Source: Patescibacteria group bacterium
Lineage (GTDB): Bacteria > Patescibacteriota > UBA1384 > XYA2-FULL-43-10 > 1-14-0-10-43-13
Reading direction: 5' to 3'
Length of the DNA: 64,000 bases
NCBI GenBank assembly: GCA_041671645.1
Contig: JBAZBD010000001.1
Span: 479,234 to 543,233, forward strand
The notes under the pieces are model-generated. The model worked only from the letters and a program-made list of their open reading frames with translations. It did no database searches and was not told the DNA's origin. Each line of letters begins with the position of its first letter. Position 1 is the first letter of the stretch. Shown in pieces: positions 2,736 through 52,538 of the stretch. A program made the translations under genes and the position numbers.

Positions 2736-2738
2736 TTA

Positions 2739-27644: not shown

Positions 27645-27662
27645 GGAACAAAGAGAATTGTT

Positions 27663-36494: not shown

Positions 36495-36495
36495 A

Positions 36496-36548: not shown

Positions 36549-36605
36549 TGCATAGCGCTATATCTATAGTATGAGGCTGAGATTAAGCTGGCGTGAATCA
36601 CGCCC

Positions 36606-36634
36606 TTGACACACTATATATGGGATGCTATAAT
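36606..36634 (+). promoter_or_regulatory. Consensus sigma70 promoter P1 (TTGACA-17-TATAAT)
   Basis: Exact consensus hexamers with a 17-nt spacer. A perfect palindrome GGCGTGA-A-TCACGCC lies immediately upstream (36590-36604). Confidence 0.75.
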
Positions 36635-36640
36635 GCTTAG

Positions 36641-36830
36641 TTCTGAGGGTAGAGAAGAGCTCACCCCCAGAAGGAAAAAATTATACATCCTTTAGACTTT
36701 ACAGACTTTACGACTTCCGACTTCTCTTGCGGTAGCGTGCTGGTAGTAGCTCATGGGTACCCCCTCCACCTGTGAGACCACTATTATCAGCACAGTACCG
36801 CAAATCCAGCACGAATCACGAGTAAGGTGC
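36641..36830 (+). ncRNA. Candidate small RNA 1 (paralog A) with C-rich core CAUGGGUACCCCCUCCACCUGUG
   Basis: Downstream of P1, no ORF. Enclosing helices GCGGTA/TACCGC and GTGCTG/CAGCAC (36708-36792) present the core (36743-36765) in a loop. GACTT x4 period-8 repeat at 36694-36722. Confidence 0.5.
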
Positions 36831-36859
36831 TTGACAAAGTATTTACAACATGGTATAAT
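36831..36859 (+). promoter_or_regulatory. Consensus sigma70 promoter P2 (TTGACA-17-TATAAT)
   Basis: Exact consensus hexamers with a 17-nt spacer. Confidence 0.75.
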
Positions 36860-36865
36860 GTTCAC

Positions 36866-37110
36866 ATGACGATTGGAAATTGAATCGTCGCACCAAACAA
36901 TTTTCTTCACTTAAGTTTCTGCAATCAATCAACGCATACGAGGGTATGAGGGACGATAGATTGAAAGCATATACTACAAAAATGCAGCGGTAGTGTCCTG
37001 CATAATTCACTCTCTTGATTTATCAAGAGAACATGGGTACCCCCTCCACCCGTGTCGAGTTATGCAGAACAGTGCCGCTATTTTTAAACCGAAAGTTCGG
37101 TTTAAATAAT
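36866..37110 (+). ncRNA. Candidate small RNA 2 (paralog B) with C-rich core CAUGGGUACCCCCUCCACCCGUG
   Basis: Downstream of P2, no ORF of more than 15 codons. 5' hairpin GACGATTGG…CAATCGTC. Enclosing helix CTGCATAA/TTATGCAG (36997-37067) with inner 9-bp hairpin TCTCTTGAT-TT-ATCAAGAGA. Core at 37032-37054. 3' hairpin AAACCGAA-AG-TTCGGTTT at 37086-37103. Confidence 0.5.
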
Positions 37111-37296
37111 GGATTACAGATTTTCCAAATTACAGATTACGAATATCCTGAATCCTTAACAGCGACACAAATAGTACTTTAACAACTATATATAGACATT
37201 GTCTCAGCGAAGAGCTGCCAACTATTGGCATCTGCTTGCTGAGACAAAAAAACGAACCCAGCCCGATCCGAATAGGACGGAATTTACATAAGGAGA

Positions 37297-38271
37297 ATGG
37301 CTATGAAAAAGTTATTCACCATCACTTTGACCGCCCTTATCATGTTGGCGGCTGGACTATCACCTGTTTTCGGACAGGTTCCTGCGGACACAACCCCCGC
37401 AACAATCAATTCTATTCCCGTAGATGCAACGAAAATTGAACCTGTCGGAAACGGCAAGCTCAAAATTACGAAGAAAGATGGAGATATTGTTTATATCACC
37501 ATCAGCAATACGCAGAATAACATTTCACCGAAGGCCCAAGTGGCACCACCGGTAATCCAGAAAGTTTACATCACCAAGCGGACTCAGGTTCGCAAGGTGA
37601 GCAATTCTCGACCGGCAGCGAAAGCTCAGCCGAAACCGCAAAGGCAGGCGCTCGTTGCGCCAGAGAAAAAGGAGAAGAATATGGAAAATGTAGCTGTAAC
37701 AGCAATCGTCCTCCCTTGGTGGGGTTGGATAATCGTAGGGATCGCAATTTTCGCAATACTGCGACCACGCGAGTTCAGGACTGCCGTCCGAGCGCTGACC
37801 AATGTAAACCACTTGATCGATGACCGAATTTCGGTCCATCGCCAGGGGTTCGGGTCGCTTACGACTCACACCACTGCGGATTCGGAGACTCGAATTTATG
37901 ATCCCATCGAAAAAACTGAGCTTGAGTGCGAAGCACTCCAAGTGAAGTACGAGAGTCGGGCGCGCATTGTGGAGGCGAAAGCCGATGCAGACATCGCGCG
38001 GAGCTTGCTCCGAGCGAAGATGCTTAAGTCGCTCGAAAGCGACGACACCACTCCTGCACCGCGCCGGCTCGTGCCGGACACTCACAGCGACGAAGAAATG
38101 CGAAGGGCGCGCCGTGAAAAGCGTGCACACGATCGCGAGGAAGCGGAGAAAAAGATCATTGCTGACGAAAAGGCGGCAGAGGATGCCAGGAAGGCAACCG
38201 AAGCCGCTAAGTTAGCGGCAAAGAACAAAAACAAAGGGAACCAGCCACCAGCTGGAGCACAAGTAACTTAA
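37297..38271 (+). CDS. Secreted/membrane protein with charged coiled-coil C-terminus (GC-rich gene)
   Basis: Signal peptide MAMKKLFTITLTALIMLAAGLSPVFGQ. Internal TM WWGWIIVGIAIFAIL. C-terminal RRAR/EEAEKK charged region. AAGGAGA RBS. GC elevated, which generates the spurious antisense ORF 37525..38130. Confidence 0.6.
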   Translation: MAMKKLFTITLTALIMLAAGLSPVFGQVPADTTPATINSIPVDATKIEPVGNGKLKITKKDGDIVYITISNTQNNISPKAQVAPPVIQKVYITKRTQVRKVSNSRPAAKAQPKPQRQALVAPEKKEKNMENVAVTAIVLPWWGWIIVGIAIFAILRPREFRTAVRALTNVNHLIDDRISVHRQGFGSLTTHTTADSETRIYDPIEKTELECEALQVKYESRARIVEAKADADIARSLLRAKMLKSLESDDTTPAPRRLVPDTHSDEEMRRARREKRAHDREEAEKKIIADEKAAEDARKATEAAKLAAKNKNKGNQPPAGAQVT

Positions 38272-38399
38272 GTAGAGGGGAATCGGCCGACATCACTTGA
38301 TGCCGGCCTTTTCCATACCCAAAAAATTGTATATAATATAAACTAGGTTATAATATATTTATATCAAATATAATCTTTTGAGCTAACGGAGGGAGTCCA

Positions 38400-38780
38400 A
38401 TGGTCAATATTGCTGAAGATCAGCAGGTAAAAGATATCATAGAGAAGGATATTTTTGTTTTGCTAAAAGCAGAAAATCTTTCTGACGAGCAAAAAGCTAT
38501 CCTCATGGCGAAGCTTACGGATGAGGCAAATCTACGGATCCTGATCCATGTTGATGAAATGCTTGCCGACTCTGCCAAGACAGAGTTCAAGCGAATAGTG
38601 AGCGAAGGCGATAGCGAAATGTTATCCGCCTTTTTTGTTGCCAACAATATCGATATTGCGATGATATTTGCTGACATTGCTCTGCAACTGAAAGCGGAAG
38701 TGGTAGCATACAACAATTACCTGACAACTTCTGCCAAAGTTTTGGCTACCTCTGCAAAGCAAGTTAAGGGAGACAAATAA
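38400..38780 (+). CDS. Hypothetical protein (126 aa)
   Basis: ACGGAGGGAG RBS. Stop overlaps the start of the giant gene. Confidence 0.55.
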   Translation: MVNIAEDQQVKDIIEKDIFVLLKAENLSDEQKAILMAKLTDEANLRILIHVDEMLADSAKTEFKRIVSEGDSEMLSAFFVANNIDIAMIFADIALQLKAEVVAYNNYLTTSAKVLATSAKQVKGDK

Positions 38781-38781
38781 T

Positions 38782-41700
38782 ATGCCAGGGCCAGAAGGCA
38801 TTCCTTTAGACGATCTGGGTTTAGATCTTGGTGATCCGATGCATCTACCTGGCGATGTTGATTTTGTTGATGACAAGCCTATCAGTGTTGACAGGTCTGA
38901 CCTTCGTCTGGAGGCAACTATGGCGAAGGCTGCCCTTCACGCTAAGACAGAGAAGGGCAAACGCGAGACCAGTGAAGCCAAGAGGAAAGAAGAGGTATTC
39001 AAGACTATATTTGGTACGATCGAAAATATCGGTATATTTAGGGACGCAGATAAGGATCGACGGGCACAAAGCTACGGAAAGTCCTGGATTGGAGATTTCA
39101 ACAGGTCGCTGGCAGGTGTTAAGACCAAGAATTCAGAGGGTATTTATACTGGCCAGACAGTTGGACAGGAAATTGAAACTAAGGCCAAGAAAATCGCACT
39201 CAAGACTGTTGTTACGATAGCAATCGGTGCAGGAATCGCATCGATATTTGGTGGCGTTAGCATCCCTATTATATTGGTGGGTGCTGCTGGCGGGGCAATT
39301 GTCAGAGGGGTGAACGAAGCTCGCCGGATTTGGAATGGCAAAGAGCGAAATATGAGGGGTGAGATAGAGGCCGCCAATGAAGCAGTTATCCAGGAGATCG
39401 ATAAACTAATTGGTGACGCCGCTCTCAAGTATATGGAGCTCGAAGAGGCGCATCTTGGCGAGGAAGGATATCAACCAGACGCTGACCCAGAATTTCAAGC
39501 AATATTATATAGAGCAATTGATTTGGCTCATGATGATACGAAGCGAAAGGTGAAGGTCGTAAAAGTTCCGATTGGCCCTGATATGACCAAGACGAGGAAG
39601 GAGTATGTAGTAGTTGACCCAAGCGAAGAGCCTCCGGCGGCTGCCGAGACAGCGGCTCCTGCGGCCGATGGGACTACTCCGGCTCCTGAAGCAGCCAAAG
39701 ATCCAAAGGTATTTACGGTCGCCGAGAAGGAAGCAGAGCTTCGTAAACTTGAGAAGAAAAATGAATCTATATCCGATTGGTGTGCTACGATTGGTAGCCT
39801 TGGCACATCTATAGTGGCCAAGGTCTTCGCCGGTGCGAAGATGGCAGAGACTGCGGCAAGCCAGGGTGCCAACGCGATTGAAGCACAGCTGAGGGCGGGC
39901 GAGCAAGTTGCGAATATTGATCTAAACGGCGACAACATAAAACATACGATTGAATTGGCACGAGATCAGGCAACTCAAAAGATTACCGATACAGTGATAT
40001 TCCTCAAGGAAGCAGGCAAGGATCTGATGGGCGCAGCCAAGGATGCTCCGAATTACAATCCTTGGGTCAATGACATAATCAATAAGGCTGGCGAGCACTG
40101 GCATACTGTCAGCGAAGCCGCCAATGATCTTACCCAAGTCATAGACATCATCAAGCACAATTTAATCAGTGCCGAATTGCACAAGCAGCTCGTGACTGTT
40201 TGGGCAACTGGTGCTGCAGGACTATTGGCAACTCTTGGTAATAGCTGGGGTAGGGAAGCGACTCAAAACCTAGAAAAAGCCCAAGAAGAGCAATCAGTCG
40301 AACATGGTCAGGTTGTTGCAGGGATGAAGAAAATTCTGCCCAAGCCGATTCCGGAAACTTCTGTCGAGCCAGTGATCGAGACTCCTCCTGAGGAGATTAT
40401 TACTCCTGCAGAAAAACTGAAGCTTGCTGAGGCGGCTGGCCTCGTCTTCACTGTGACAGCGGAGTATTATTTCGAGAGAGATGGCAAAGGCTTCGATCTT
40501 GATAAGGGTGATCGTGCCGTCATATTGGATGAGGATGATTTGGGCACATGCAAAATTGCTTTTTATAGCGCCGATGGAGAAGAGAAATTTCCAGAGAAAA
40601 CATTCATTTTTGACGCGGAAGAAGCAGATCTTATTTTTGGTGCTGGCTGGTCTGAAGAGAGAAGAGCGGAAAGAGAGTCTTCTGATGATGACGGAGATCC
40701 AGATGCCCACGTCGACCAAGATGAAACTGATCAGTCAGAGATGGACAAGACTGACGCAGAATTTGCCACGGAGATGCATGAAAAATACAAAAACACAGAG
40801 TTAGAACTGACTCTCGATGAAGATGGCAAAGTTACCAAAATCGGCAAGGATAATTGGCCCAAGAATAGAGAGAACAGCGGAGTCTGTGAGAACGCGAATA
40901 CTCCAAACGGCCGATATAAAGTCAAGATTTCAAATATTGAGTCTGTCAAAGATAGTATTAATGTGAAGTTTGATCTGAAAGAGCAAGAGCTGGGAGCCGG
41001 ATTCGAGGGCTATACCCACGCTGGATTCCTTAAGTCTGATATGTCAGATGGTATTCCTCAAACGATAATCTTCGGGGCTAGCGCAAACGTACGTGAGATT
41101 GTATTGCTCGACAAAGGTGGCAAGAAGTGGAAGGTACAATCTGCCGTTGGCGATGATAAGCTCGCCATCGTCGACTGTAACCCTGACGGAACACTAGGGG
41201 ACAAGAAGCACAACCCGACCGTGAGCCAAATCAAAGAAGTTTTCATTGAGTGGTATCACAAAGAAAAACCTACGGTCAAGCCTCCTGAGAAGAAAAAACC
41301 AGAGGCTTTGCCCACGGAATTCACTGATAAGTTTACCGAGAGCGGCAAGATAGATTCTGATGCGTTTATAGACGCTATCGAAGCAGACTATTTCGATAGA
41401 AATATTAATGGCGGGAATGGTGGCCGTGTAGTAGTGGATTATGGTGGCGGCGTCGCATCGTTATTCCAGAAAATTGGGGAGGATCAATATGAAGTTTATG
41501 ATTTCGACCTTGAGAAATCAGATATAATCGCAGGTCAGTCGCCCAAGCCTCGCAATAGGGGTGATATCGAAGTAAATCAGAGTAACAAAGTCGGGAAGTT
41601 ATGGCTCGAGAAGAGCTATTTCGGCACCGACTCGTTCAAGAAGAATTGGGCTACTGAGAAGACACTTAACGAATTAGATGTAAACAGCGTGGTTCATTTG

Positions 41701-43968
41701 AGTGACAATATTACGGCCACTGTCCCGAAAGAGCCGGGCGCACCAAGCGTTGGTATGGCTGGTTTGTCATTTAAAATATCGATGGTTGAACGTCAGACAG
41801 GCACTCTTGACCAATTTACATGCGAAATTGTTGGCAATCCCGACAAAGTGGACAAAGCATTCGAAGGGTATGTTTTTCTGGGCGGTATCTTGGACGTTAA
41901 AGCTACAATCAACAGAAAAGTCATGAAGAGAATTTTGGAAGGTGATTCTCTCTCGTTTCCCCTAAAACTCGAGAAGAAGAAAGAAACGGTTCCTGCCGCC
42001 GATGTAGAGAAGAGATTAGCCGAGCTACAAGTTGGCGAAGAATTACCCATTGGCGATTCTATGAAGATTGAAGTGGAAGATGGCCCGACTGTCTTTCTCA
42101 AGGGACTGAAATACAAGATTACGAAATTGCCTTTTTTCGATGGTCGCGATCGTGATCAATTTTCTGGTCATATGGTGAGCGAGAATCCCGAGAATCTTGA
42201 GAAAATAAATAGTGAATTTTCGGAATATGAATTTTCGGCGATTGAGAATATTTCGTTCGGGATAACCATACCAGGGATAAAGAAAAGTCTTGCCGGCAAA
42301 GAAGTAATTTTCAGCTATACAAAAGATGAAGTAAAGAAGAAGGTTGAGAAGCCAGCGACCAAGGATGAAGAGACTGATCCAAACGCAAAAGAAGCGAAGG
42401 AGAAAATCAATCAAATCCTGGAGCTATCGACCAAGCTGGGTGCTCTCAAAACGAAAGTTGCCAAGCAAATAGAGGCATCAGTGGATAGGCTTACTAAATT
42501 AAATGCCAATCCCGATCGCATCAAGTCCTTGGAGATCATCGGACGAAAATTAGACCGTGTGGATCCAACGAAAATTGATGAGAAAATGACAAAGGCGGTG
42601 AAAGCCAGCCGTAAAAAAATTGATGAATACAAAGCTTTTCCGGAAGGCTTAATTGATTCTTACAAAGTTAAAGAGATACAGTCTGTCCGCTCCAAGTACT
42701 TTGAATCGCTTGACGAATTTGTTGGCATATATAATGACTTTTTGGGATCGCTTGAGCATGCTGATACCGACGAAGAAAAGGCCGAATTTATTTCACTCTC
42801 TAGTGAACTGAAGGCCGAGATTGAGAAGCTTGGGCTTGTCAGTGTCGAAGCCAAGACGGGGGACAAATGTGATTATTCAACAATGGAGGCCTCAGAAGGA
42901 TCCGAGACGGGTGACGAGAAATACAAAGGTAAGGAGATTGTCGAGCGCGTGATTAAGCAAGGGTTTATCTTCGACGGCAGTCTTCAGCTTCACGATGGTA
43001 AGCTAGGCGATGTTGCAAAAGCAGCACAAGTTACTGTCTACAAATATGTTGAGGGGGGAGAGACTCCGCCTGTGCTCGAAAATAAAGCAGTGATTCCAAT
43101 CGAGAAGTTGCAAGAGAATGTGCCTGCAGGTTTTCGGTTGTATGGCCGTGCAGAATTTTATCAGGATGATATAGCTGAAGCGCTGGATTCCGTTGATTCT
43201 GAAGCAGATGAACCTGTTCCGACTCTGAAAGCAAAGCCGTTGCTCTACGGCGATGGCGACAAATTCTGGATTATTATACCTGAAGACGGCAAATTCAATC
43301 GATATTCGCTGGATAAGGATTTCAATATTGTTGGAGAGGCTGAAATATTAACCGTTGACAATTTCAAGCCCAAGAAAGAAATCGTTGCGTTATACAGGGA
43401 TAAATTGACTTCCGAGAAAGCTGATGAGGATATCCGGGAACTGGTCGAAGGTAGCGTGGTCCCCCTGGGCTACAATGTTCGCGTTGAAGTAGGGGGCGGC
43501 AAATATTGGACTTTTTCGCCGTCATTCTCTGTCCGTGTGACTCAGATTGTGCCGAATTCGAACGAATCCACACCAGCTGGCCCCATTGAATTCTATAATA
43601 CTGAAATCATGCTTGTGAACGAAGTTCAAGAAGAGATGGCGGAATTTGATGAAGAAGCAAATATATATGTCAATAAATATGGTAATAATGTAAGACTTCG
43701 CTTTAGCCCTGAGCAGATGAGAGACGTCTTGATTGGCAATAATGTAACGCTAACAGAAGACAACGTTATCAAGGGCACTCCTGTGGCAGAAGAAATTTCC
43801 AAAGAAGCCGCCGATAACTCTGATATCAAGGAATTGGCCGAAGTTGCCAATGACCAGAACGACGCATACGCGAACCAGAGGAAGAAGAAAAAGAAAAATG
43901 ATACTAAACCGCCAGGGCTGGAAGACAAATCAAAGAGTGCAGAGAATGATTTGGGGCTAAATGGATAA
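38782..43968 (+). CDS. Giant acidic protein (1728 aa) with one hydrophobic segment near aa 140-175; unknown function
   Basis: Uninterrupted 5.2-kb ORF. The only hydrophobic stretch is IALKTVVTIAIGAGIASIFGGVSIPIILVGAAGGAIV. Strongly D/E/K-rich. No catalytic motif recognised. Confidence 0.7.
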   Translation: MPGPEGIPLDDLGLDLGDPMHLPGDVDFVDDKPISVDRSDLRLEATMAKAALHAKTEKGKRETSEAKRKEEVFKTIFGTIENIGIFRDADKDRRAQSYGKSWIGDFNRSLAGVKTKNSEGIYTGQTVGQEIETKAKKIALKTVVTIAIGAGIASIFGGVSIPIILVGAAGGAIVRGVNEARRIWNGKERNMRGEIEAANEAVIQEIDKLIGDAALKYMELEEAHLGEEGYQPDADPEFQAILYRAIDLAHDDTKRKVKVVKVPIGPDMTKTRKEYVVVDPSEEPPAAAETAAPAADGTTPAPEAAKDPKVFTVAEKEAELRKLEKKNESISDWCATIGSLGTSIVAKVFAGAKMAETAASQGANAIEAQLRAGEQVANIDLNGDNIKHTIELARDQATQKITDTVIFLKEAGKDLMGAAKDAPNYNPWVNDIINKAGEHWHTVSEAANDLTQVIDIIKHNLISAELHKQLVTVWATGAAGLLATLGNSWGREATQNLEKAQEEQSVEHGQVVAGMKKILPKPIPETSVEPVIETPPEEIITPAEKLKLAEAAGLVFTVTAEYYFERDGKGFDLDKGDRAVILDEDDLGTCKIAFYSADGEEKFPEKTFIFDAEEADLIFGAGWSEERRAERESSDDDGDPDAHVDQDETDQSEMDKTDAEFATEMHEKYKNTELELTLDEDGKVTKIGKDNWPKNRENSGVCENANTPNGRYKVKISNIESVKDSINVKFDLKEQELGAGFEGYTHAGFLKSDMSDGIPQTIIFGASANVREIVLLDKGGKKWKVQSAVGDDKLAIVDCNPDGTLGDKKHNPTVSQIKEVFIEWYHKEKPTVKPPEKKKPEALPTEFTDKFTESGKIDSDAFIDAIEADYFDRNINGGNGGRVVVDYGGGVASLFQKIGEDQYEVYDFDLEKSDIIAGQSPKPRNRGDIEVNQSNKVGKLWLEKSYFGTDSFKKNWATEKTLNELDVNSVVHLSDNITATVPKEPGAPSVGMAGLSFKISMVERQTGTLDQFTCEIVGNPDKVDKAFEGYVFLGGILDVKATINRKVMKRILEGDSLSFPLKLEKKKETVPAADVEKRLAELQVGEELPIGDSMKIEVEDGPTVFLKGLKYKITKLPFFDGRDRDQFSGHMVSENPENLEKINSEFSEYEFSAIENISFGITIPGIKKSLAGKEVIFSYTKDEVKKKVEKPATKDEETDPNAKEAKEKINQILELSTKLGALKTKVAKQIEASVDRLTKLNANPDRIKSLEIIGRKLDRVDPTKIDEKMTKAVKASRKKIDEYKAFPEGLIDSYKVKEIQSVRSKYFESLDEFVGIYNDFLGSLEHADTDEEKAEFISLSSELKAEIEKLGLVSVEAKTGDKCDYSTMEASEGSETGDEKYKGKEIVERVIKQGFIFDGSLQLHDGKLGDVAKAAQVTVYKYVEGGETPPVLENKAVIPIEKLQENVPAGFRLYGRAEFYQDDIAEALDSVDSEADEPVPTLKAKPLLYGDGDKFWIIIPEDGKFNRYSLDKDFNIVGEAEILTVDNFKPKKEIVALYRDKLTSEKADEDIRELVEGSVVPLGYNVRVEVGGGKYWTFSPSFSVRVTQIVPNSNESTPAGPIEFYNTEIMLVNEVQEEMAEFDEEANIYVNKYGNNVRLRFSPEQMRDVLIGNNVTLTEDNVIKGTPVAEEISKEAADNSDIKELAEVANDQNDAYANQRKKKKKNDTKPPGLEDKSKSAENDLGLNG

Positions 43969-44758
43969 TATCAACGCAAACAATACAGAATTACGTTTTC
44001 AATCGATCAAGGAGCTCGAGGGGAATGAGCGACTCCTTGCTCTAATTGTCAACCAAATCATGGCTATGAATGAATGGATCGAAGAGATCCATAAGTTTGA
44101 AGCCGAAGCCAAAGTCGAAACAGTGCACACGAAGCGGGTTGCTGAGACGCCTGGCGCCCACACACTTGACCATGGGCGTGTGGTGGCTCATGCCTCAAAA
44201 ATTGAGGAAAGCGCGAAGAAAGATCTTCGAGGTTATCACGCTAGATTGAATAAATTGAAAAGAGCGTTGGCTACAAATCTTGCTCACCTGTTCAGGGATC
44301 TGTCGGCTGAGGGTGACGCGGAGCAAGCTAGGGTTCGGATTCAGGGATTTCTCCAATCAATCAGCGACGAGAAAGCCCGTGTAGACATGGCCGAGCATCG
44401 TTATCCAAATGAAATCGAAAAGCTTAGTATTTATAATGCGCTGGCCAAGAGAGTCGAGGAGTCACGCAAACCGAAAGTTGTCGAACTAGAGGCGAAGGTA
44501 GCTGAGGCCGCGCCAAATCTAACCCCAGCATCTGTCGAGCCGCCTGCAGTTGTGGAAGACCCAGTTATCCCACCACCAGTTGTAGCCGAGGAATCAGTCA
44601 AAGTGGGTGATACTCCACCGGCGGGAGCGACTCCGTTTGTTGACGACGAGCCGGTTGAGGACAAGATTAGCCAGATCGAAAAAATGGGGTCCATATATGA
44701 GCTTACGACCAAACAGCTTGCACCATATTACCCTGGTGAAATAGAAAAAGCAGCATAA
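43961..44758 (+). CDS. Hypothetical protein (265 aa) with Pro/Val-rich C-terminal region
   Basis: 8-nt overlap with the giant gene suggests translational coupling. No recognised domain. Confidence 0.5.
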   Translation: MDNINANNTELRFQSIKELEGNERLLALIVNQIMAMNEWIEEIHKFEAEAKVETVHTKRVAETPGAHTLDHGRVVAHASKIEESAKKDLRGYHARLNKLKRALATNLAHLFRDLSAEGDAEQARVRIQGFLQSISDEKARVDMAEHRYPNEIEKLSIYNALAKRVEESRKPKVVELEAKVAEAAPNLTPASVEPPAVVEDPVIPPPVVAEESVKVGDTPPAGATPFVDDEPVEDKISQIEKMGSIYELTTKQLAPYYPGEIEKAA

Positions 44759-44772
44759 AAAGAAAAATCAAA

Positions 44773-47346
44773 ATGGCAACAAGTTCAAATTATTACAACT
44801 CTACTTCTCAATCACGGAACACTATATCGGCTACCTCAACCCAGGCAGATATGTCCGGGTGGTTTTGGTTTTTCGGCACGACTATCGTCCTTACAGCTCT
44901 GGTTTTGATTGTCGTCTGGATTCGCAAGATGTTGATTCGAAAGTCACAGGTCCAGATCACCCGTGACTGGATAATGTTCAAGGTGATGACGCCGAAGGAG
45001 CGCCATGCAGAGGAGGATGACCAGCGCAAGAATTTTCAGGAGATGTTAGGAGTAATTGAGCCGTTTTATGCCAATCTTCACGCGCTTTTTGACAACAATT
45101 TGTTCGCCAAAATGTTCAAACGCCAGACCCATATATCTCTCGAGCTGGTGGCCAAGGAAGGTCGGATATTCTTCTATGTCGGCTGTTCGAAAAAGATCTC
45201 TTCGATAGTTCTGAAGAATCTCCAGGCCCAATATCCTCACTCTGAGGTTCGCGAGGAGAAGGATTATTCAATTTTTCCAGACAAGCCGCTCAAAATGGAT
45301 GTGACCAGCGTCACCCTGACACGGCGTTACATGTTTCCGATCAAAACTTACAAAATGCTTGAAGAGGATCCGCTCAACGCGATCACCAATTCACTCTCGC
45401 GATTGACAGAGAATGAATTGGCCGGCATCCAGATATTGGTACGACCAACCTCAGGGTTATGGCGATTGGCGGGCGAGCGAACTGCCTATAACATTCAACA
45501 TGGCAAATCTCGAGTCTCATATTCCAACACTTGGTGGGTCAGAGCAGGAGAGTCATTCTTCAATTTTGTTAGCAGCTCGGCTAGCATGGTGGGCGGCAAC
45601 AAGGAGCAGAACGAGACAGAGTATCAGAGCTCGATGAGAAAATTGACTCCAATGCAGGAGAACACAGTCAAGCTACTCGGCGAGAAGGCAGCCAAGATCG
45701 GATTTGAATGCCAAATCAGAATTGTCGGAGTAGGGGAGACCGACAAGGACGCCGAGAATGTGACGAAGAATATTGCTGCCTCTTTTAACCAGTTCAACGC
45801 ACCTGACTCCAATGGACTTTGGAAAAAGGAACCAAAAAAGAAAAACGAAGAATTGGCCAACTATATTTTCCGAGTATTTTCATCTGGTAGTGTCTCAATA
45901 TTAAATACCGAGGAGCTTGCTTCTCTTTATCATTTCCCAAATCGTTATATTGATACTCCAAATATCGTCTGGCTGTTGTCTCGCAAAGAGCCGCCACCAG
46001 CCAATTTGCCCTCCGAAGGTACTATCGTTGGTAAATCGCTCTATCGAGGTCAGGAGAAATTCATTCGTATCAAGGAAGCAGATCGTCTACGCCACATCTA
46101 CCAAATCGGTAAAACTGGTGTGGGTAAAACTGTTATGTTCCAAAACATGATTCGTCAGGATATCGAAGAGGGTAAGGGTGTTTGCTATCTTGATCCAAAT
46201 GGTGACGCCGCCGAGTGGATATTGAATCACATTCCGAAGGAACGCGCTGAGGATGTCATCTACTTCAATCCGGCTGATAGAGAGAGGCCATTTGGTTTGA
46301 ATATGCTGGAGTGGAAGACGCCAGAGCAGAGAGACTTCTTGGTCCAGGAATCTATCCAAATATTTTACAAATTGTTTGACCCCAATCAGACTGGTATGGT
46401 TGGTCCGCAGTTTGAGCACTGGATGAGAAATGCGGCATTGACTTTGATGATGCATCCAGACGGCGGCACTATCATCGATATCCCACGCCTCTTTACTGAT
46501 CCAGATTTTGAAAAGGATCGTGTCAAATATGTGACAGATCCTGTGGTTAAATCTTTCTGGGAAAAGCAGATGGCCAAGACGGCTGATTTCCACAAATCTG
46601 AAATGTTGAATTACTTCACCTCCAAGTTTGGTAGATTCATGACCAACGACATGATGAGGAATATTCTAGGTCAGACCAAGTCATCCTTTGATTTCCGCGA
46701 GATCATGGACACCAAGAAAATTTTGATCTGCAATCTCTCCAAGGGATTGATCGGCGAAATTAATGCCTTCTTGCTTGGTATGGTGATCGTATCCAAGATT
46801 GCCATGGGTGCCTTCTCCCGTCAGGAAATTCCCGAGAATGAACGTGTTCCTTTTTACCTCTATGTTGATGAGTTTCAAAACTTTATTACCGATGTTTTCG
46901 CCACGATTTTGTCAGAGTCTCGTAAATACAAACTGAGCTTGAATATCACCAACCAGTACATCGAGCAGTTAGATGAGAAGATTCGTGCCGCTGTCGTGGG
47001 CAACGCTGGTACTTTGATTGCCTTCCGCATGGGCGCCGCTGACGCAGAATTCTTCCAGAAGGAGTTTGACCCGCTCAAGCCTGATGATCTGACAAATATT
47101 GACAAGTATAATTTCTACATTAAGATGCTGATCGACGGCGCGCCAACCCGACCTTTCAATGGTCAGAGCATCTGGCCAGAGGACTTTGAAGGCAATCCCA
47201 AGCTAGGGACCGCGATTAAAGAGCTCTCAAGGCTGAAGTATGGCAAACCCAGAGAAATCATAGAGACGGAGATATTGGAGAGATCGAAGGTTGACAGTAT
47301 TGATCTGCCAGGTCTCAAATCAACTGGCGGAGCACCGACGTCATAA
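44773..47346 (+). CDS. Membrane-anchored FtsK/HerA/TraD-superfamily ATPase (type IV secretion coupling-protein-like), paralog 1
   Basis: N-terminal TM (WFWFFGTTIVLTALVLIVVWI). Walker A GKTGVGKT. Walker B …LYVDEFQNF. HerA/FtsK-type arginine-finger/sensor SESRKYKLSLNITNQY. Conserved block …YHFPNRYIDTPNIVW… shared with ORF 49205. Confidence 0.7.
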   Translation: MATSSNYYNSTSQSRNTISATSTQADMSGWFWFFGTTIVLTALVLIVVWIRKMLIRKSQVQITRDWIMFKVMTPKERHAEEDDQRKNFQEMLGVIEPFYANLHALFDNNLFAKMFKRQTHISLELVAKEGRIFFYVGCSKKISSIVLKNLQAQYPHSEVREEKDYSIFPDKPLKMDVTSVTLTRRYMFPIKTYKMLEEDPLNAITNSLSRLTENELAGIQILVRPTSGLWRLAGERTAYNIQHGKSRVSYSNTWWVRAGESFFNFVSSSASMVGGNKEQNETEYQSSMRKLTPMQENTVKLLGEKAAKIGFECQIRIVGVGETDKDAENVTKNIAASFNQFNAPDSNGLWKKEPKKKNEELANYIFRVFSSGSVSILNTEELASLYHFPNRYIDTPNIVWLLSRKEPPPANLPSEGTIVGKSLYRGQEKFIRIKEADRLRHIYQIGKTGVGKTVMFQNMIRQDIEEGKGVCYLDPNGDAAEWILNHIPKERAEDVIYFNPADRERPFGLNMLEWKTPEQRDFLVQESIQIFYKLFDPNQTGMVGPQFEHWMRNAALTLMMHPDGGTIIDIPRLFTDPDFEKDRVKYVTDPVVKSFWEKQMAKTADFHKSEMLNYFTSKFGRFMTNDMMRNILGQTKSSFDFREIMDTKKILICNLSKGLIGEINAFLLGMVIVSKIAMGAFSRQEIPENERVPFYLYVDEFQNFITDVFATILSESRKYKLSLNITNQYIEQLDEKIRAAVVGNAGTLIAFRMGAADAEFFQKEFDPLKPDDLTNIDKYNFYIKMLIDGAPTRPFNGQSIWPEDFEGNPKLGTAIKELSRLKYGKPREIIETEILERSKVDSIDLPGLKSTGGAPTS

Positions 47347-47372
47347 AGTCGAAAGTCCATAAAGTCCATAAA
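47344..47372. repeat. AAAGTCN tandem repeat (aaagtcgaaagtccataaagtccataaag)
   Basis: Directly after the ATPase stop. Same repeat family as inside tgt (36246-36273) and ileS (9826-9858). Confidence 0.6.
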
Positions 47373-47386
47373 GCATATGGTACAAA

Positions 47387-47413
47387 ATCAGCACGAAAAT
47401 GTGCTGATTTTTG
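47387..47413 (+). terminator. Rho-independent terminator
   Basis: ATCAGCAC-GAAAAT-GTGCTGAT followed by TTTTG. Confidence 0.85.
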
Positions 47414-47515
47414 TAGTTAATATTAGAACATAAAAGTGTTGACGATGGCGATCTAATGTGGTAAGATATTCCACGAGGTCAAAAATAATTGCCGTGAAAA
47501 CGGCTCAAAACAAAA

Positions 47516-48019
47516 ATGCCAACTGAGAAAGATCTCTCAAATATCAAACAGCTCCTTGATTCAGCCGAGAACAATATTCGCTTGGCACGCTCCCTAATGT
47601 TTTCGCGTGAAGTGTTAGTCAAGAGCGAGCGTAGCGAAGCCTCAAACGAAGAGAGCGAGAGCGTCGTGGAAGGGATATTTGACGGCGAGCGGATGGTTAC
47701 TTCAAGCGGAAAGACTTATTCAGTCCCTGCGAATTATGCCTCGAAATCCAAGCTCGTAACTGGCGACACTCTCAAGTTGACTATTCCTGAAGACGGAAGC
47801 TTTATTTTCAAACAAATCGGTCCAGTCGAGCGCAAGAAACTGGTTGGTTTGTTGGAAGATATGGGCGACAATGTCTATACGGTTACGGCTGGCGGCACCA
47901 AATATCGTGTTCTGGCCGCCTCAATCACTTATTTCAAAGCTAAAATCGGGGACAGGGTAAGTATTCTTGTCCCAGAAGATTCAGCAAGCGAGTGGGCAGC
48001 AGTCGAAAATATTATTTAA
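47516..48019 (+). CDS. Hypothetical protein (167 aa)
   Basis: ORF with acidic N-terminus. No recognised domain. Confidence 0.45.
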   Translation: MPTEKDLSNIKQLLDSAENNIRLARSLMFSREVLVKSERSEASNEESESVVEGIFDGERMVTSSGKTYSVPANYASKSKLVTGDTLKLTIPEDGSFIFKQIGPVERKKLVGLLEDMGDNVYTVTAGGTKYRVLAASITYFKAKIGDRVSILVPEDSASEWAAVENII

Positions 48020-48042
48020 ATATTTAATCAATAAAGTAATAA

Positions 48043-49083
48043 ATGGAAAATCGCATGACAGTCAAAAACTTTTCTCCCTACAAAATTGTAAGAGAGGCAA
48101 TCAGCGGCTTAAAACCAAACGAACGTAAGGTTATAGCTAGCCGTTTTGGTGTTGATACTGATCACAAAACACTGTCATCCATCGGTCGTGAGCTTGGACT
48201 TTCACGCGAAAGAATTCGTCAGATCGAAAAAGACGGTCTTCGCAAGCTTGCTAAATCTATCGTTGAAGATAACAACTCATATATTATCGATATCGTTGAC
48301 GCTTTTGAGAAACAGGGCGGTATTTCTAGCCACAACAAAATCGCTGAGAAATTCCTCGACGAAGTAATGCACAAAGACAAGAATGAGTTCAACTCGCTTC
48401 ACCTGATCTTCCTTTTGATGCCACAGATCATCAAGATCGAGCGTACACAAGAGCTCGAAGCTGGTTGGATGCTTGGGTCTGTCTCCAAAGATGACATAGT
48501 CTCAATCATCGATGCTTGGGTCACACATTTGAAGAAACAAAAACGTCCAGAGAATATTGATATTTTGGTCCAATCTCATCCAACTCAATCCAAATACAAG
48601 ATGACCTTCCTTTCAGAACTTCCAGAAATTTCCAAACGACTTGTTCGCACCGAATCTGGTGAAATCGGTCTGTCTGTCTGGCCTGAAGTCAACCCAAAGA
48701 ATGTCAGAGACAAAATCTACTTTATTCTTAAAAAGTATGAAAAACCTCTCCATTTCAACGAAATCGCTGCCAAGATCAAGGATCAGAGCTTCGATGGTAA
48801 GGACATTGTCCGCGCTACCGTTCACAATGAGTTGATTGCTGATGAACGTTTCGTCTTGGTTGGCCGTGGGATCTACGCTCTGTCAGAATGGGGCTACAAA
48901 GAGGGGACTGTCGCCGAAATCATTTCTGAAATTCTATCCAAGAATCCCGAAGGCATGACCGCAGAGGATATCGTCAAGGCAGTGTCCAAACAGAGAATTG
49001 TGAAGAAAAATACCATCCTTATAAATCTTCAGACAAAGCCACTATTTAAAAAAGTTGGCAAGTCAAAATTTGCTCTAAAATAA
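48043..49083 (+). CDS. Sigma-70 region 4-like HTH DNA-binding protein with uncharacterised C-terminal domains
   Basis: N-terminal SGLKPNERKVIASRFGVD…TLSSIGRELGLSRERIRQIEKDGLRKL matches sigma70 region 4 (-35 recognition HTH). The remaining ~270 aa are unassigned. Confidence 0.6.
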   Translation: MENRMTVKNFSPYKIVREAISGLKPNERKVIASRFGVDTDHKTLSSIGRELGLSRERIRQIEKDGLRKLAKSIVEDNNSYIIDIVDAFEKQGGISSHNKIAEKFLDEVMHKDKNEFNSLHLIFLLMPQIIKIERTQELEAGWMLGSVSKDDIVSIIDAWVTHLKKQKRPENIDILVQSHPTQSKYKMTFLSELPEISKRLVRTESGEIGLSVWPEVNPKNVRDKIYFILKKYEKPLHFNEIAAKIKDQSFDGKDIVRATVHNELIADERFVLVGRGIYALSEWGYKEGTVAEIISEILSKNPEGMTAEDIVKAVSKQRIVKKNTILINLQTKPLFKKVGKSKFALK

Positions 49084-49106
49084 GCACATTGTCAGTACTC
49101 AAAGAA

Positions 49107-49140
49107 AGCTCACAGGCCTTGGCCTGTGAGCTTTTGTGTT
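49107..49140 (+). terminator. Rho-independent terminator
   Basis: Perfect 12-bp stem AGCTCACAGGCC-TT-GGCCTGTGAGCT followed by TTTTG. Confidence 0.9.
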
Positions 49141-49204
49141 TGTGGACTTTATAAACATTTATTTGTATAATTAGATTAATGTCTCTATCGGCCAATTTTT
49201 ATAT

Positions 49205-52200
49205 ATGAATTTTATACTATACGTAATTTACTTCGTCTTAATCGTTGGACCAATATACTTAATATGGGCAATTGCTAATATGAACAAAAAAATCAAAAAA
49301 GTCGACTGGCTAGCCGCTCAAGAATACACAGTATTGCGTATAGATGTACCGCGCAACAACGAGAAGTCGCCGATGGCCGCTGAGCAAATGTTTGCCGCTA
49401 TTCATGGTATCTACTCCGAATCTGCCGAATTCCAAAATCATCTGAGCTTCGAGATAGTCTCAAAAGATAAGTTCATTCAATTCTATATCTATTTGCCTTT
49501 GCACTTGAAGGATTTCGTAGAGGGTCAGATCTATGCTCAATATCCGACTGTCGAGATTAATGAAGTCGATGATTATGCCCAGAATGCCAGTATTGGCTCC
49601 AAAGATTATGCCATCTGCGAACTTAATTTGACCAAGCCAGATGTCTATCCAATCAAAACCTTTACAGATTTCGATGTAGACCCGATTTCATCTATCACTT
49701 CCGTCATGACCAAGCTTGGCGAGGATGAGGAAGTCTGGGTTCAATTTGTGATCAAGCCAATAGGGGATGAGTGGCAGGAAAAAGGTCATGAAATGGTCTC
49801 TTCTGTCCGAAACGGCACCAATATTGCCAAGGTTGGACTCGGCCGTGCTATCGCAAGTGGTTTTGCAAAATTTGGCAAAGCTTTAGTCTTGCAGGCGATC
49901 AGACCTGGCGTCGACTTGGATCAGCCAGAAAAGGAAGTCAAATTGCCATCTGCCGTAGAGGACGCCCTCAAGAATATTGAGCTCAAAATCACCAAACTTG
50001 GATTCGAGACCAAAATCAGGGTATTGGCTCTCGGGACCGATCCAACTCTGACCAAAGCTAAATGCCAAAATATCGCTGCAACGTTCAAGCAGTTTAATTC
50101 GACCACCCTAAACGGTTTCAAAATAGGGGAAGTCCATATCAACAATCAGACCTCATTCAAGGATTTCGTATATCGCTCGTTTGAAGATGACGGCGCGATC
50201 CTCAATATCGCTGAAATTGCTTCAATATTCCATTTACCATCTAGTTCAGTCTCGACCCCAAATATTGTTTGGTCTGGCTCCAAGAAGGGAGAACCACCTT
50301 CCAACTTACCGCTTCGAACAAACACTGAAGAATCTCAATTTACAGTGCTTGGACTTACGAATTTTCGGAATAATTTACAGGAGTTTGGCATCAAAACTGA
50401 TGATCGCCGACGACATATTTATATTATTGGTAAATCTGGTACTGGTAAGTCCACATTGATCGAGAATATGGTGATCAACGATATCGCGGCCGGCAAAGGC
50501 GTAATCCTAATTGATCCGCATGGAGAAACTGCGGACAAGATTTTGGCGTGTACTCCTGACAGTCGTATCAACGATGTTATAGTCTTTGATCCTTCCGATC
50601 GCGAATTTCCTGTCGCCTTCAACCTATTGGAAACGGTCGATGATGATTTTAAGGGGATTGTCGCATCTGGTTTTGTTGGAATCTTCAAGAAGATATTTGG
50701 TGAATCATGGGGACCTAGACTTGAGCATATTCTTCGAAATACTGTTTTGGCGCTTCTGGATTGTCCCGATTCCACCATGCTGGACATCCCCAAGATGTTG
50801 ACCAACAACAGGTTCCGCGACAAGATCGTCGAGCAGGTTAAAGATTCGGTGATCCGAGACTTCTGGGTCAATGAATTCGCACAATATGATAGCAAATTTA
50901 GGACTGAGGCTGTTTCACCAATTTTGAACAAAGTTGGGCAGTTCCTGGCCACTTCGACTATTCGAAACATTGTCGGTCAAGCACATTCTCGTCTGAACAT
51001 TCGTGAAGTCATGGACCAGCAGAAGGTAATGATTGTAAATCTATCTCGTGGCAAGATCGGAGAAGACAACTCTGCGCTTCTCGGCGCGATGATGATTACC
51101 AAGATTCAGCTTGCCGCGATGAGCCGTGCTGATGTCACAATCGAGAATAGACCAGATTGTTTCCTCTACGTGGACGAGTTTCAGAACTTTGCGACTGACT
51201 CTTTCGCTACGATTCTTTCCGAGGCTCGAAAGTATAATCTGTCCCTTACTATTGCTCATCAATACATCGCTCAAATGCCTGACCCGGTCAAAGAAGCAGT
51301 ATTTGGCAATGCGGGTACCCTGATCTCATTCCGTGTTGGTGGATCTGACGCTGTGACGCTGGTCAAAGAGTATGCTCCTGTTTTTGAAGAAAACGATATG
51401 GTTAATCTCGAGAAGGCTCATATCTATATCAAACTTCTAATCGATGGTATAGCACCGCCAGCTTTCTCTGCCAGAACTCTGCCACCAGTCGCCAAATTGA
51501 CCGGCAACTATGATCAGGTTGTGAACCAATCTCACCAAAAATATTCTGTCGCGCGCAGTACCGTCGAGGCTCAGATTGATGGTAAGTCAAGTCAGGAAGA
51601 GGAAGAGCTGAAAAGAGAGGCTGAAATCTTCAAATCTGGCGGACTCGAAGCGCTTCTGACAAAACGTGGCGCCGCTTCACCTAGTTCGGAGCCAGAGGAC
51701 CGCGCTCCCGAAAAGGAAACCGTCAACTCCGCATTTATCCCAGAGGAGGCGCAAGCCGAGCCAAAGCCTCTTGTAGACTCTGAGCCAGAAGATAAACCTG
51801 TATACAAGTCTGAACCAGTATCTCAGCCAGAATCAGCAAAGCTAGAAGAACATGCTAATCGCGAAGACGTAGCCTCAGTAAAACATGAAAGCCATGAAAA
51901 ACCCGAAGAGCCTACTAAGTCAGACGAGCCAAGAATCCTGAAGTGGCAGAACGTTATAGAGGGCAAGGTCTACAAGGAGCGCACAGCACGAGGTAATGTG
52001 AAGTGGTATGTTGGCGACGAGGTCGACGAGGAGAAGCTTCTCAAGGCCGGTGTAGTCTTGGACGACAAGGCGAAGCGAATCATTGCGCTAACCGCCAAAC
52101 TCGCAGATCATGATGGCACCCAGAAAAAAAATGTAGTAGGGGAGAGCGATTCTATCCGTCCCGAAAAAGTGGACAATCTATTGGAGCCAAAAGAAGTACC

Positions 52201-52477
52201 AAGCACTGCGATCGTAGAATCAAATTTGCTTCCAGAAATTGCGCCAAATATATTACCTGCTTTTCAACCGGAGAATCTACCAGAGAAACACGAAGCAGAC
52301 AGTCCTGCGCTTGCCCACTCGATATTGTCGCCGAATGAAGAGAAGGAACTGCCGAAGACTGATCATGCTGAGGCGCCAACTAAACATGCCGAATCTCATC
52401 ATGTGACGCATCATCACGCTACCCATCTAGCGGAAGGCCAGTCGGTTAAGCTACACCACAAAGAGGAAGATAAATAG
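49205..52477 (+). CDS. Membrane-anchored FtsK/HerA/TraD-superfamily ATPase, paralog 2, with long low-complexity His-rich C-terminal tail
   Basis: N-terminal TM. …FHLPSSSVSTPNIVW… block. Walker A GKSGTGKST. Walker B FLYVDEFQNF. EARKYNLSLTIAHQY. The C-terminal ~330 aa is E/P/K-rich and ends HAESHHVTHHHATHLAEGQSVKLHHKEEDK. Confidence 0.7.
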   Translation: MNFILYVIYFVLIVGPIYLIWAIANMNKKIKKVDWLAAQEYTVLRIDVPRNNEKSPMAAEQMFAAIHGIYSESAEFQNHLSFEIVSKDKFIQFYIYLPLHLKDFVEGQIYAQYPTVEINEVDDYAQNASIGSKDYAICELNLTKPDVYPIKTFTDFDVDPISSITSVMTKLGEDEEVWVQFVIKPIGDEWQEKGHEMVSSVRNGTNIAKVGLGRAIASGFAKFGKALVLQAIRPGVDLDQPEKEVKLPSAVEDALKNIELKITKLGFETKIRVLALGTDPTLTKAKCQNIAATFKQFNSTTLNGFKIGEVHINNQTSFKDFVYRSFEDDGAILNIAEIASIFHLPSSSVSTPNIVWSGSKKGEPPSNLPLRTNTEESQFTVLGLTNFRNNLQEFGIKTDDRRRHIYIIGKSGTGKSTLIENMVINDIAAGKGVILIDPHGETADKILACTPDSRINDVIVFDPSDREFPVAFNLLETVDDDFKGIVASGFVGIFKKIFGESWGPRLEHILRNTVLALLDCPDSTMLDIPKMLTNNRFRDKIVEQVKDSVIRDFWVNEFAQYDSKFRTEAVSPILNKVGQFLATSTIRNIVGQAHSRLNIREVMDQQKVMIVNLSRGKIGEDNSALLGAMMITKIQLAAMSRADVTIENRPDCFLYVDEFQNFATDSFATILSEARKYNLSLTIAHQYIAQMPDPVKEAVFGNAGTLISFRVGGSDAVTLVKEYAPVFEENDMVNLEKAHIYIKLLIDGIAPPAFSARTLPPVAKLTGNYDQVVNQSHQKYSVARSTVEAQIDGKSSQEEEELKREAEIFKSGGLEALLTKRGAASPSSEPEDRAPEKETVNSAFIPEEAQAEPKPLVDSEPEDKPVYKSEPVSQPESAKLEEHANREDVASVKHESHEKPEEPTKSDEPRILKWQNVIEGKVYKERTARGNVKWYVGDEVDEEKLLKAGVVLDDKAKRIIALTAKLADHDGTQKKNVVGESDSIRPEKVDNLLEPKEVPSTAIVESNLLPEIAPNILPAFQPENLPEKHEADSPALAHSILSPNEEKELPKTDHAEAPTKHAESHHVTHHHATHLAEGQSVKLHHKEEDK

Positions 52478-52538
52478 AGATAGATACTAGTGAATAGGGA
52501 AGACTCAGGCGGAAGCCAGGGTCTTTTCTTTTATCTAC

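Follow-up and report, generated by a model that had tools for sequence, protein, structure and literature searches.

We analysed a 64,000-nucleotide stretch of a Patescibacteria group bacterium genome (assembly GCA_041671645.1, contig JBAZBD010000001.1, positions 479,234 to 543,233 of the forward strand), here called the window, and in it a block of eight consecutive plus-strand genes at window positions 37297-52477, which we number g1 to g8. An initial annotation, made from the sequence alone, had proposed the block as a candidate novel type IV secretion-like system, and its eight open reading frames (ORFs) were confirmed at their coordinates by our ORF calls; as a whole the proposal is partly supported. 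The block is a conserved chromosomal locus of known ancestry, apparently vertically inherited and made of two layers, a slow one (g5 to g8) that encodes two paralogous ATPases and their partners and a fast one (g1 to g4) that includes a giant protein. It is not a self-contained type IV secretion system (T4SS), since Pfam and NCBIfam family searches of the window genes recognised no VirB4, VirB3, VirB6, VirB8, pilin or relaxase gene in the block, nor is there a recognisable channel gene. The eight genes are not one evolutionary unit, and the same searches found no VirB4, VirB3, VirB6, VirB8 or relaxase gene anywhere in the window.

Two paralogous ATPases of the coupling-protein family

ATPase 1 (g5, 44773..47346; all features are on the plus strand unless noted) has 857 residues, with a transmembrane (TM) segment at residues 27-50, a DUF8128 domain at about residues 60-400 and then a P-loop domain like that of type IV coupling proteins (T4CPs), which carries a helical insertion at residues 517-632. 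The same order is found in ATPase 2 (g8, 49205..52477, 1090 residues), with a TM segment at residues 1-24, DUF8128 and a T4CP-like P-loop domain, followed by an acidic tail of about 300 residues. As annotated initially, the two are true paralogues (35% identity across 768 residues, E 7e-150), and their alignment holds YHFPNRYIDTPNIVW / FHLPSSSVSTPNIVW (...TPNIVW), the Walker A motif, YVDEFQNF and SE(S/A)RKY...QY. In g5 the Walker A (46108..46131, G446-T453, GKTGVGKT) and Walker B (46861..46872, Y697-E700, YVDE) motifs fall in invariant columns, and the alignment of the paralogues places the Walker A motif of g8 at 50429..50452 (G409-S416, GKSGTGKS). Hydropathy gives each protein the single N-terminal TM segment that had been described, and a two-helix N-terminal TM domain with a periplasmic loop was seen in neither; DUF8128, which follows a single TM helix, must therefore be cytoplasmic.

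The suggestion that this architecture is undescribed did not hold. The conserved module of about 350 residues in both ATPases is the existing Pfam family DUF8128 (PF26449, about 340 residues, N-terminal), an assignment taken from precomputed matches on a 100%-identical protein, on all listed homologues and on both paralogues in relatives, and its combination with a T4CP domain is known in Pfam, on Firmicutes, actinobacterial and archaeal plasmids, in Bacillus phages and as PHROG 5156. Literature searches for DUF8128, DUF5663 and PF26449 found nothing.

Matches of g8 above the Pfam gathering cut-offs were T4SS-DNA_transf (29.6 against 20.1), TrwB_AAD_bind (26.4 against 20.5), TraG-D_C (25.3 against 22) and DUF87 (26.8), and for g5 TraG-D_C was above its cut-off (23.9 against 22) and TrwB_AAD_bind below it (17.3 against 20.5). 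When a profile of the two paralogues was compared with the PDB, DotL and TrwB were the best solved relatives, with no FtsK or HerA. Both proteins have the P-loop nucleotide-binding domain of the VirD4/VirB4/HerA clade with its Walker A and Walker B motifs, and neither has the VirB4 N-terminal domain or the family-model match that mark VirB4/TraC/CagE proteins; a gamma domain appeared in no Pfam or NCBIfam match, and no specific gamma search was made. The top NCBIfam models score far below cut-off (SXT_TraD 48 against 366 bits, CD1115 VirD4-like 43 against 250 bits). Judged by these profile comparisons, both ATPases are on the VirD4/TraD/TrwB coupling-protein side of the HerA/FtsK superfamily and not housekeeping FtsK, in keeping with their first description as HerA/FtsK/TraD-like, and they are a distant coupling-protein branch outside the named NCBIfam subfamilies.

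The likeness to VirD4, TrwB of plasmid R388, TraD and DotL extends to the P-loop clade, the Walker A and B motifs, the N-terminal membrane anchor, the Pfam T4CP matches above cut-off and perhaps the helical insertion, a candidate counterpart of their all-alpha domain, but the block ATPases have one TM segment where VirD4 and TrwB have two, and the cytoplasmic DUF8128 of about 340 residues is absent from TrwB and VirD4. They also differ from T4CPs in being chromosomal, duplicated and phylum-wide, with no relaxase, virB4 or channel genes nearby and with partners that are oligonucleotide/oligosaccharide-binding (OB) fold and helix-turn-helix (HTH) proteins, not relaxosome components. FtsK/SpoIIIE and TcpA-type translocases, which pump DNA, belong to the same ASCE P-loop superfamily and are likewise membrane-anchored; from FtsK/SpoIIIE the block ATPases differ in scoring below the Pfam cut-off for FtsK_SpoIIIE and in having no multi-TM N-domain.

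The tail of g8 (51575-52477, residues about 791-1090; about 300 residues) is acidic, proline-rich and poorly conserved. Its conserved parts, a small module ILKWQNVI.GKVYKERTARGNVKWYVG and a His-rich C-terminus, are common to the homologous loci L005, L001 and L006 and weaker in L003, and the tail may bind adaptors, as the extensions of TraD and DotL do. DUF8128 and the ATPase domain are separate adjacent ORFs in L098, L100 and L101 (also in L103, L104, L106 and L109), in L087 and on haloarchaeal plasmids, and DUF8128 is thus an autonomous unit. Genetic code 25 was rejected as the cause of the split ATPases in loci linked to g7, as codes 11 and 25 give the same result.

The family has members on mobile elements. 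PHROG 5156 matches g5 and g8 end to end with E of 1e-90 or lower, and tblastn recovered homologues over the full length, at identities of only 20-25%, from two phages (Bacillus phage G and Geobacillus phage TP-84), from small Bacillus plasmids and from plasmids of Streptomyces, haloarchaea and Sulfolobus. One of them, WP_121549396.1 of the B. subtilis plasmid NZ_CP032854, aligns over both domains (23% identity, E 3e-36) and is encoded immediately 5' of a replication-relaxation (relaxase-family) gene, TcpE, a VirB4-like ATPase and conjugal transfer genes, a neighbourhood that puts it in coupling-protein position. In a haloarchaeal homologue, DUF8128 and the ATPase have an ORF each, beside a gene for a 'conjugal transfer protein'. 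No partner like g6 was present in the three mobile-element contexts examined, and no protein like g7 was annotated there. These Gram-positive and archaeal ATPases have the same two-domain architecture, align end to end with those of the block and, in haloarchaea as in some Patescibacteria, are split into two ORFs; theirs, however, lie on mobile elements with transfer genes, whereas those of the block are chromosomal and flanked by housekeeping genes. Their presence on Bacillus and archaeal plasmids agrees with the published derivation of the Patescibacteria T4SS from MPF-FATA, a class of monoderms and archaea (Quinonero-Coronel et al. 2025, PMC12102498). Full-length DUF8128-type ATPases also occur in JN638751 (Bacillus phage G gp156), KY565347 (TP-84) and SPbeta-like phages, which include lytic and temperate phages of Bacillus and Geobacillus, and are found there among early or unknown-function genes.

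Paralogue types, partner genes and distribution

A scan of species-representative genomes returned at least 594 species-level ATPase matches over nearly all Patescibacteria lineages, and the 80 loci kept from it were all of g5 type, that is, with a higher score to g5 than to g8. The organism labels of many third-party annotation (TPA) assemblies are unreliable, and the co-occurrence counts given below are affected by the length of the contigs and by the ORF calling, which was simple. Scores between g5-type and g8-type ATPases are 400-510 bits and those of either type against mobile-element homologues only 55-190 bits; the two types are thus far closer to each other than to the mobile-element proteins, which points to an ancient duplication inside the phylum and accounts for the published figure of about two T4CP homologues per genome. 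That figure comes from 5,713 VirD4-type homologues in 2,918 Patescibacteria genomes, of which only 148 lie near virB4, and the authors allow for exaptation; VirB4 was found in 2,417 of 3,035 genomes (PMC12102498). These proteins, about two per genome, mostly away from virB4 and possibly exapted, are almost certainly the same as the block ATPases, and the paper is without the DUF8128 domain, the two paralogue types, the two partner families and the giant-protein island described here.

Directly 3' of ATPase 1 is g6 (47516..48019), a protein of 167 residues with a long N-terminal helix (residues 4-39) and two OB-fold domains of cold-shock/S1-like type (about residues 49-102 and 106-166), for which a five-stranded beta-barrel OB topology is predicted. 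Its invariant basic/aromatic motif is NYASKSKL..GD..KL, and it may bind single-stranded nucleic acid. Of 69 species loci that could be evaluated, 26 have a member of its family at +1 or +2 of the g5-type ATPase. The family is large, with 7971 significant among the 8000 candidates scored and a Pfam model on none of the 120 matches listed.

The partner of ATPase 2 is g7 (48043..49083, 346 residues), which has a Sigma70_r4 HTH at residues 19-70 (E 1.4e-15) and a HARE-HTH domain at residues 228-283 (E 1.9e-11). It had been described, without mention of the HARE-HTH domain, as a dedicated sigma-like regulator. Pfam and NCBIfam detected no sigma region 2, and region 4 opens the protein, with HARE-HTH after it. 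It is thus not a sigma factor and more plausibly serves as a DNA-binding adaptor than as a regulator. Its dedication, on the other hand, was upheld. A metagenome scan with a g7 profile found 16 full-length relatives at only 28-36% identity, and the gene after the g7 relative encodes a g8-type DUF8128 ATPase in all ten loci with enough downstream sequence, so that g7 is dedicated to ATPase 2. The ATPase linked to g7 in L094 scores 688 bits to g8 against 451 to g5, and some ATPases in this position are split in two ORFs.

With OB folds in g6 and HTH domains in g7, both conserved partners are of nucleic-acid-binding type. Small DNA-binding proteins encoded with T4CPs, such as TrwA, TraM and PcfF, bring DNA to them. 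In the same way g7 is of DNA-binding type and is encoded just 5' of the g8-type ATPase, but it uses a sigma-70 region-4 HTH and HARE-HTH where those proteins use a ribbon-helix-helix.

Other neighbours of g5-type loci are mostly housekeeping genes. The commonest are dnaX (18 loci), an XerC/D-like recombinase gene (9), an FtsB-like gene (9), cysS, ribonucleotide reductase (RNR), corA, prmC and aspS, and among the 25 most recurrent neighbour families of 84 loci, 16 of which were inspected by sequence, none is a relaxase or virB4. Two neighbours are specific to the g5-type ATPase, namely the g6 family at +1/+2 and a lineage-specific small protein at -1. The latter are acidic proteins of about 140-180 residues encoded directly 5' of the ATPase in 36 loci (among L001-L084); they form at least three families with no detectable similarity among families or to g4, and are positional analogues. 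Membership of g4 in these families was rejected, as hhalign gave no relationship.

The closest named relatives are Berkelbacteria. A Berkelbacteria-like clade has the g5-g6 and g7-g8 modules side by side and repeats the order of all eight genes (L093, L005). In L093 it reads tgt, genes for 270 and 129 residues, a 1429-residue giant, 610 residues, ATPase 1, 167 residues, a sigma-r4/HARE-HTH protein and ATPase 2; L005, L088 and L090 have the same order, partial in L088 and L090, and L001 is partial with g2-g3 inverted. Several relatives have the locus at this same place, between tgt and secDF. Conservation across the clade is bimodal: g5 to g7 show 56-95% identity (ATPase 1 68-92%, g6 56-77%, g7 63-95%), while g1 to g4 have at most 43% or no detectable homology, with g2 at 25-43%, g3 recognisable only at its N-terminus, g4 matched only in L005 and g1 mostly replaced. 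Outside this one clade only the pairs ATPase plus g6 and g7 plus ATPase persist, unlinked to each other. Conservation of the block as a unit, on which the initial proposal depended, thus applies to the clade, where L093 has the full order and L005, L088, L090 and L001 most of it, and beyond it only to two separate gene pairs.

The giant-protein island and the setting of the block

The giant protein is encoded by g3 (38782..43968) and has 1728 residues, with a conserved N-terminal module at about residues 40-540 and a fast-evolving, non-repetitive C-terminal part of 1200 residues. In a word-indexed search of 5.8 billion proteins it retrieved itself alone, and an exhaustive HMMER search gave 21 representatives in 1.84e9 proteins, which vary from 548 to 1852 residues and have only residues 40-540 or so in common. 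It is 29% identical to the giant of L005, where the adjoining ATPases are 92% identical. A hydrophobic stretch of about 40 residues with K/R-rich flanks (residues 138-177, 39193..39312), identified by family-averaged hydropathy and alignment, is the sole family-conserved hydrophobic element; it is predicted to be a TM hairpin, and by the positive-inside rule both termini would be cytoplasmic. Of the original description as an acidic protein with a single anchor, the acidity stands in moderate form (D+E 18.5%, K+R 13.3%), but the anchor has a length that would allow a TM hairpin. In g3 neither self-repeats nor a signal peptide nor any match in Pfam or the PDB was found, and with the predicted hairpin these results led us to reject a generic repeat adhesin. 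A C-terminal positively charged secretion signal was also rejected, being unconserved among relatives. Giant relatives in L088, L089 and L090 carry a Metallophos domain (calcineurin-like phosphoesterase, PF00149) in the variable C-terminal region, where in g3, unlike these, no domain was detected.

The giant family was found near an ATPase, in line with the initial annotation, in five of the five places with enough flanking DNA (the window, L005, L088, L093 and, inverted, L001), a count that leaves out L090, where the contig end cuts the next-but-one downstream gene. Wherever the contig is long enough, the ATPase is one or two genes 3' of the giant, and this co-occurrence is seen only inside the Berkelbacteria-like clade.

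Upstream of the giant, g2 (38400..38780, 126 residues) encodes a DUF5663-like protein and ends 1 nt before g3; its homologues (25-43% identity) lie directly 5' of every giant-family gene examined, several with precomputed PF18908. Downstream, g4 (43961..44758) encodes an acidic protein of 265 residues at a variable position and overlaps the g3 stop codon by 8 nt, so that the coupling of the giant to both neighbours by this 1-nt spacing and 8-nt overlap, claimed initially, is borne out by the ORF coordinates. The only homologue of g4 is in L005 (39% identity), and other members of the clade have unrelated proteins of 378-1163 residues there. The first gene, g1 (37297..38271), encodes a 324-residue protein whose N-terminus resembles a signal peptide and which has another hydrophobic segment at residues 131-149; it has no Pfam or NCBIfam match. 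This position is hypervariable and is held in relatives by a gene of similar size, mostly without detectable homology. The g1 position of the closest relative (L005:318-1268) is taken by a secreted protein that is unrelated to g1 and has collagen-like G-x-y repeats (GTPGKDGTPGVAGKDGTPG...), which indicates that the position is replaced rather than diverged.

In having a small protein gene directly 5' of a large protein with a conserved N-terminus and a variable C-terminus, near a membrane ATPase of the HerA/FtsK superfamily, g2-g3 resemble the polymorphic LXG proteins of type VII secretion systems (T7SS), in which a small helical partner gene lies directly 5' of a large protein with a variable C-terminus. 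They differ in that no sequence relationship was detected, that a TM hairpin is predicted within the N-terminal module of g3 and that no toxin/immunity pair was identified.

Four strong terminators had been reported in the block, and three of them were recovered on the plus strand. Intrinsic terminators lie 3' of g5 (47385..47412, fold -15.7 kcal/mol, z -5.85, then a U tract) and 3' of g7 (49104..49135, strong, with a 14-bp stem, fold -24 kcal/mol, z -5.2), and a terminator-like hairpin with a U tract lies 3' of g8 (52497..52530, fold -20.4 kcal/mol, z -2.7). The fourth, at 52996, lies outside the block; its fold is better on the minus strand, and the gene that it serves is the convergent DUF1290 gene. 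Together with promoter-like sites at 47439 and 49143, the terminators point to transcription as g1, g2-g3-g4-g5, g6-g7 and g8.

The block is flanked by rplA/rplJ/rplL/tgt on one side and DUF1290/secF/secD on the other, the rest of the window is mostly housekeeping, and the base composition of the block is ordinary for the window. Searches for tRNAs and Rfam families found none. The spacer between tgt and g1 (36495-37296) holds two perfect sigma-70 consensus promoters (TTGACA-17-TATAAT with extended TG, 36606-36634 and 36831-36859), each followed about 90-130 nt 3' by a 23-bp imperfect stem (36727-36749/36781-36803 and 36986-37008/37057-37079). Both stem loops hold a common C-rich motif, GGGTACCCCCTCCACC, which resembles an anti-Shine-Dalgarno sequence; these two occurrences are the only ones in the window, against a chance expectation of 0, and the closest relative has one at the corresponding position. 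Over about 110 nt the second copy is nearly identical to L005 (region L005:40-200). These promoter/stem units are a candidate pair of paralogous small RNAs, and the spacer has no match in Rfam.

Elsewhere in the window, and unlinked to the block, are type IV pilin-like genes (N_methyl motif, three ORFs) with a prepilin peptidase gene (165-3476) and dprA (15576-16661), parts of a pilus/competence toolkit typical of Patescibacteria. Four consecutive plus-strand genes occupy 23506-29222, where local guanine-plus-cytosine content reaches 0.50 (24-26 kb); the first two (544 and 308 residues) have no family match, and the last two encode proteins of about 520 residues with DUF11/DUF7619/DUF7927 repeat domains that are probably at the cell surface. 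A CLIPPER/DUF11-type gene similar to these lies upstream of prfA in L088.

Possible roles of the two layers

With the family assignment, paralogy, folds and conserved gene pairs demonstrated above, we hold with high confidence that the core of the locus consists of domesticated DUF8128-type coupling-protein paralogues with dedicated partners. The slow layer would comprise two ancient paralogous modules derived from the T4CPs of monoderm/archaeal-type conjugation systems, module A being the membrane-anchored DUF8128 plus VirD4/TrwB-like P-loop ATPase g5 followed by the tandem OB-fold protein g6, and module B the sigma-70 region-4 plus HARE-HTH protein g7 followed by the sister ATPase g8. Each ATPase would form a translocase ring on the cytoplasmic side of the membrane, with substrate brought by its partner, single-stranded nucleic acid by g6 and duplex DNA by g7. 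By analogy with TrwA, TraM and PcfF, g6 and g7 may present nucleic acid to their cognate motors, which could either feed a Patescibacteria-type T4SS encoded elsewhere in the genome or work alone, free of a relaxase. In the Berkelbacteria-like clade the fast layer, with a secreted or anchored protein, a DUF5663-like protein coupled to the giant and a variable gene, may be an island of accessory or cargo genes whose function is linked to that of ATPase 1. In the literature the picture is favoured by the Patescibacteria T4CP homologues, about two per genome and mostly away from virB4 (PMC12102498), and by the essential T4SS cluster of Southlakia, in which neither coupling nor relaxase proteins were recognised (Wang et al., PMC10633639). 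This fuller picture, in which domesticated motors of coupling type act on nucleic acid beside a lineage-specific island of accessory or cargo genes, we consider about evenly balanced between right and wrong.

Several observations weigh against it. Adjacency of g6 to the ATPase is seen in only about 38% of evaluable loci, with g6 absent beside the ATPase in Microgenomatia-, Paceibacteria- and Gracilibacteria-like loci, and OB folds also bind proteins and oligosaccharides. A single TM segment with a cytoplasmic DUF8128 differs from the canonical two-TM T4CP. The window contains no oriT and no T4SS channel gene, which makes coupling to a T4SS conjectural, and the role suggested for the g1-g4 island is read from position and evolutionary rate. 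T4CP homologues outnumber VirB4 by genomes, and in Southlakia t4cp is dispensable and the T4SS genes are essential (PMC12102498), which makes an obligatory role in the T4SS less likely.

Some of these points would suit a housekeeping DNA translocase for segregation, dimer resolution or replication-coupled handling, with g7 as loading or recognition factor, g6 as single-stranded DNA-binding cofactor and no link to secretion. The ATPase family is near-universal and apparently vertical in Patescibacteria by both our species scan and PMC12102498, its homologues are in more genomes than VirB4, both conserved partners are of nucleic-acid-binding types, and the loci always lie among housekeeping genes, with dnaX, XerC/D-like and FtsB-like genes as recurrent neighbours. 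Such neighbours are, however, expected by chance in Patescibacteria genomes, which are dense in them, and the ATPases fall in the coupling-protein family; TM7x has an ftsK that is annotated separately (PMC10768705), Southlakia can do without its t4cp homologue (PMC12102498), and a hypervariable island beside ATPase 1 is unexpected for a core DNA-maintenance machine. We regard this explanation as unlikely, although it deserves attention.

The island itself recalls the export of protein effectors, with the ATPases as receptors or unfoldases, the giant as cargo delivered to the host through a T4SS or another route and its DUF5663-like partner as chaperone or adaptor. The order of small protein, giant, variable gene and ATPase is constant wherever the contig is long enough, g2, g3 and g4 are translationally coupled, and the giant joins its conserved N-terminal module to polymorphic C-terminal regions (Metallophos in relatives) and evolves far faster than its neighbours, as is typical of proteins of host interaction or conflict; the Southlakia T4SS has been proposed to export proteins (PMC10633639). 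Yet the island is confined to one clade where the ATPase modules are phylum-wide, and the conserved partners of the ATPases have nucleic-acid-binding folds and are not chaperones. The predicted TM hairpin and missing signal peptide of the giant sit badly with a translocated effector, its C-terminus showed no conserved secretion signal, and Pfam, NCBIfam and PADLOC gave no toxin/immunity signature in g3 or g4 of the window. Effector export is in our judgement rather improbable.

A decayed integrative and conjugative element (ICE), or a 'HerA/FtsK capture' defence module that intercepts incoming DNA, is very improbable: full-length homologues on plasmids and phages with the PHROG 5156 match (E 1e-90 or lower), a PADLOC match to the mad8 ATPase model (2e-16) and the hypervariable neighbouring genes speak for it, but we rejected a prophage or ICE for want of a tRNA, integrase, boundary repeat or composition shift and for the same tgt-secDF position in several relatives and a phylum-wide distribution that looks vertical, and a known defence system because the PADLOC matches are confined to ATPase domains (mad8, HerA) and the sigma-r4 of MzaA, with no nuclease or other effector partner detected.

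Our preferred reading remains that of domesticated coupling-type motors which act on nucleic acid. Compared with the searched literature, the two paralogue types, the obligate-looking OB-fold and sigma-r4/HARE-HTH partners and the polymorphic giant-protein island are new; the DUF8128 plus T4CP architecture (Pfam) and Patescibacteria T4CP homologues away from virB4 (PMC12102498) were already known. Orphan T4CP homologues are obvious candidates for T4SS substrate selection, and two ATPase types with distinct nucleic-acid-binding partners give testable handles on what the machines move. Patescibacteria rely on hosts for nucleotides and other building blocks, and in the single species tested their T4SS is essential and its cluster is without a coupling protein. 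At its most far-reaching, the locus would belong to a phylum-wide, relaxase-independent nucleic-acid translocation apparatus of two duplicated coupling motors with duplex-DNA and single-strand adaptors, moving DNA or RNA between epibiont and host, to which the giant island would be a clade-specific host-specificity or effector add-on; this we put forward as a speculation that is probably wrong. If it were true, such an apparatus could import host nucleic acid for nucleotide supply or export DNA via the essential T4SS. For an uncultivated clade, the hypervariable giant island beside ATPase 1 is a source of candidate factors of host interaction.

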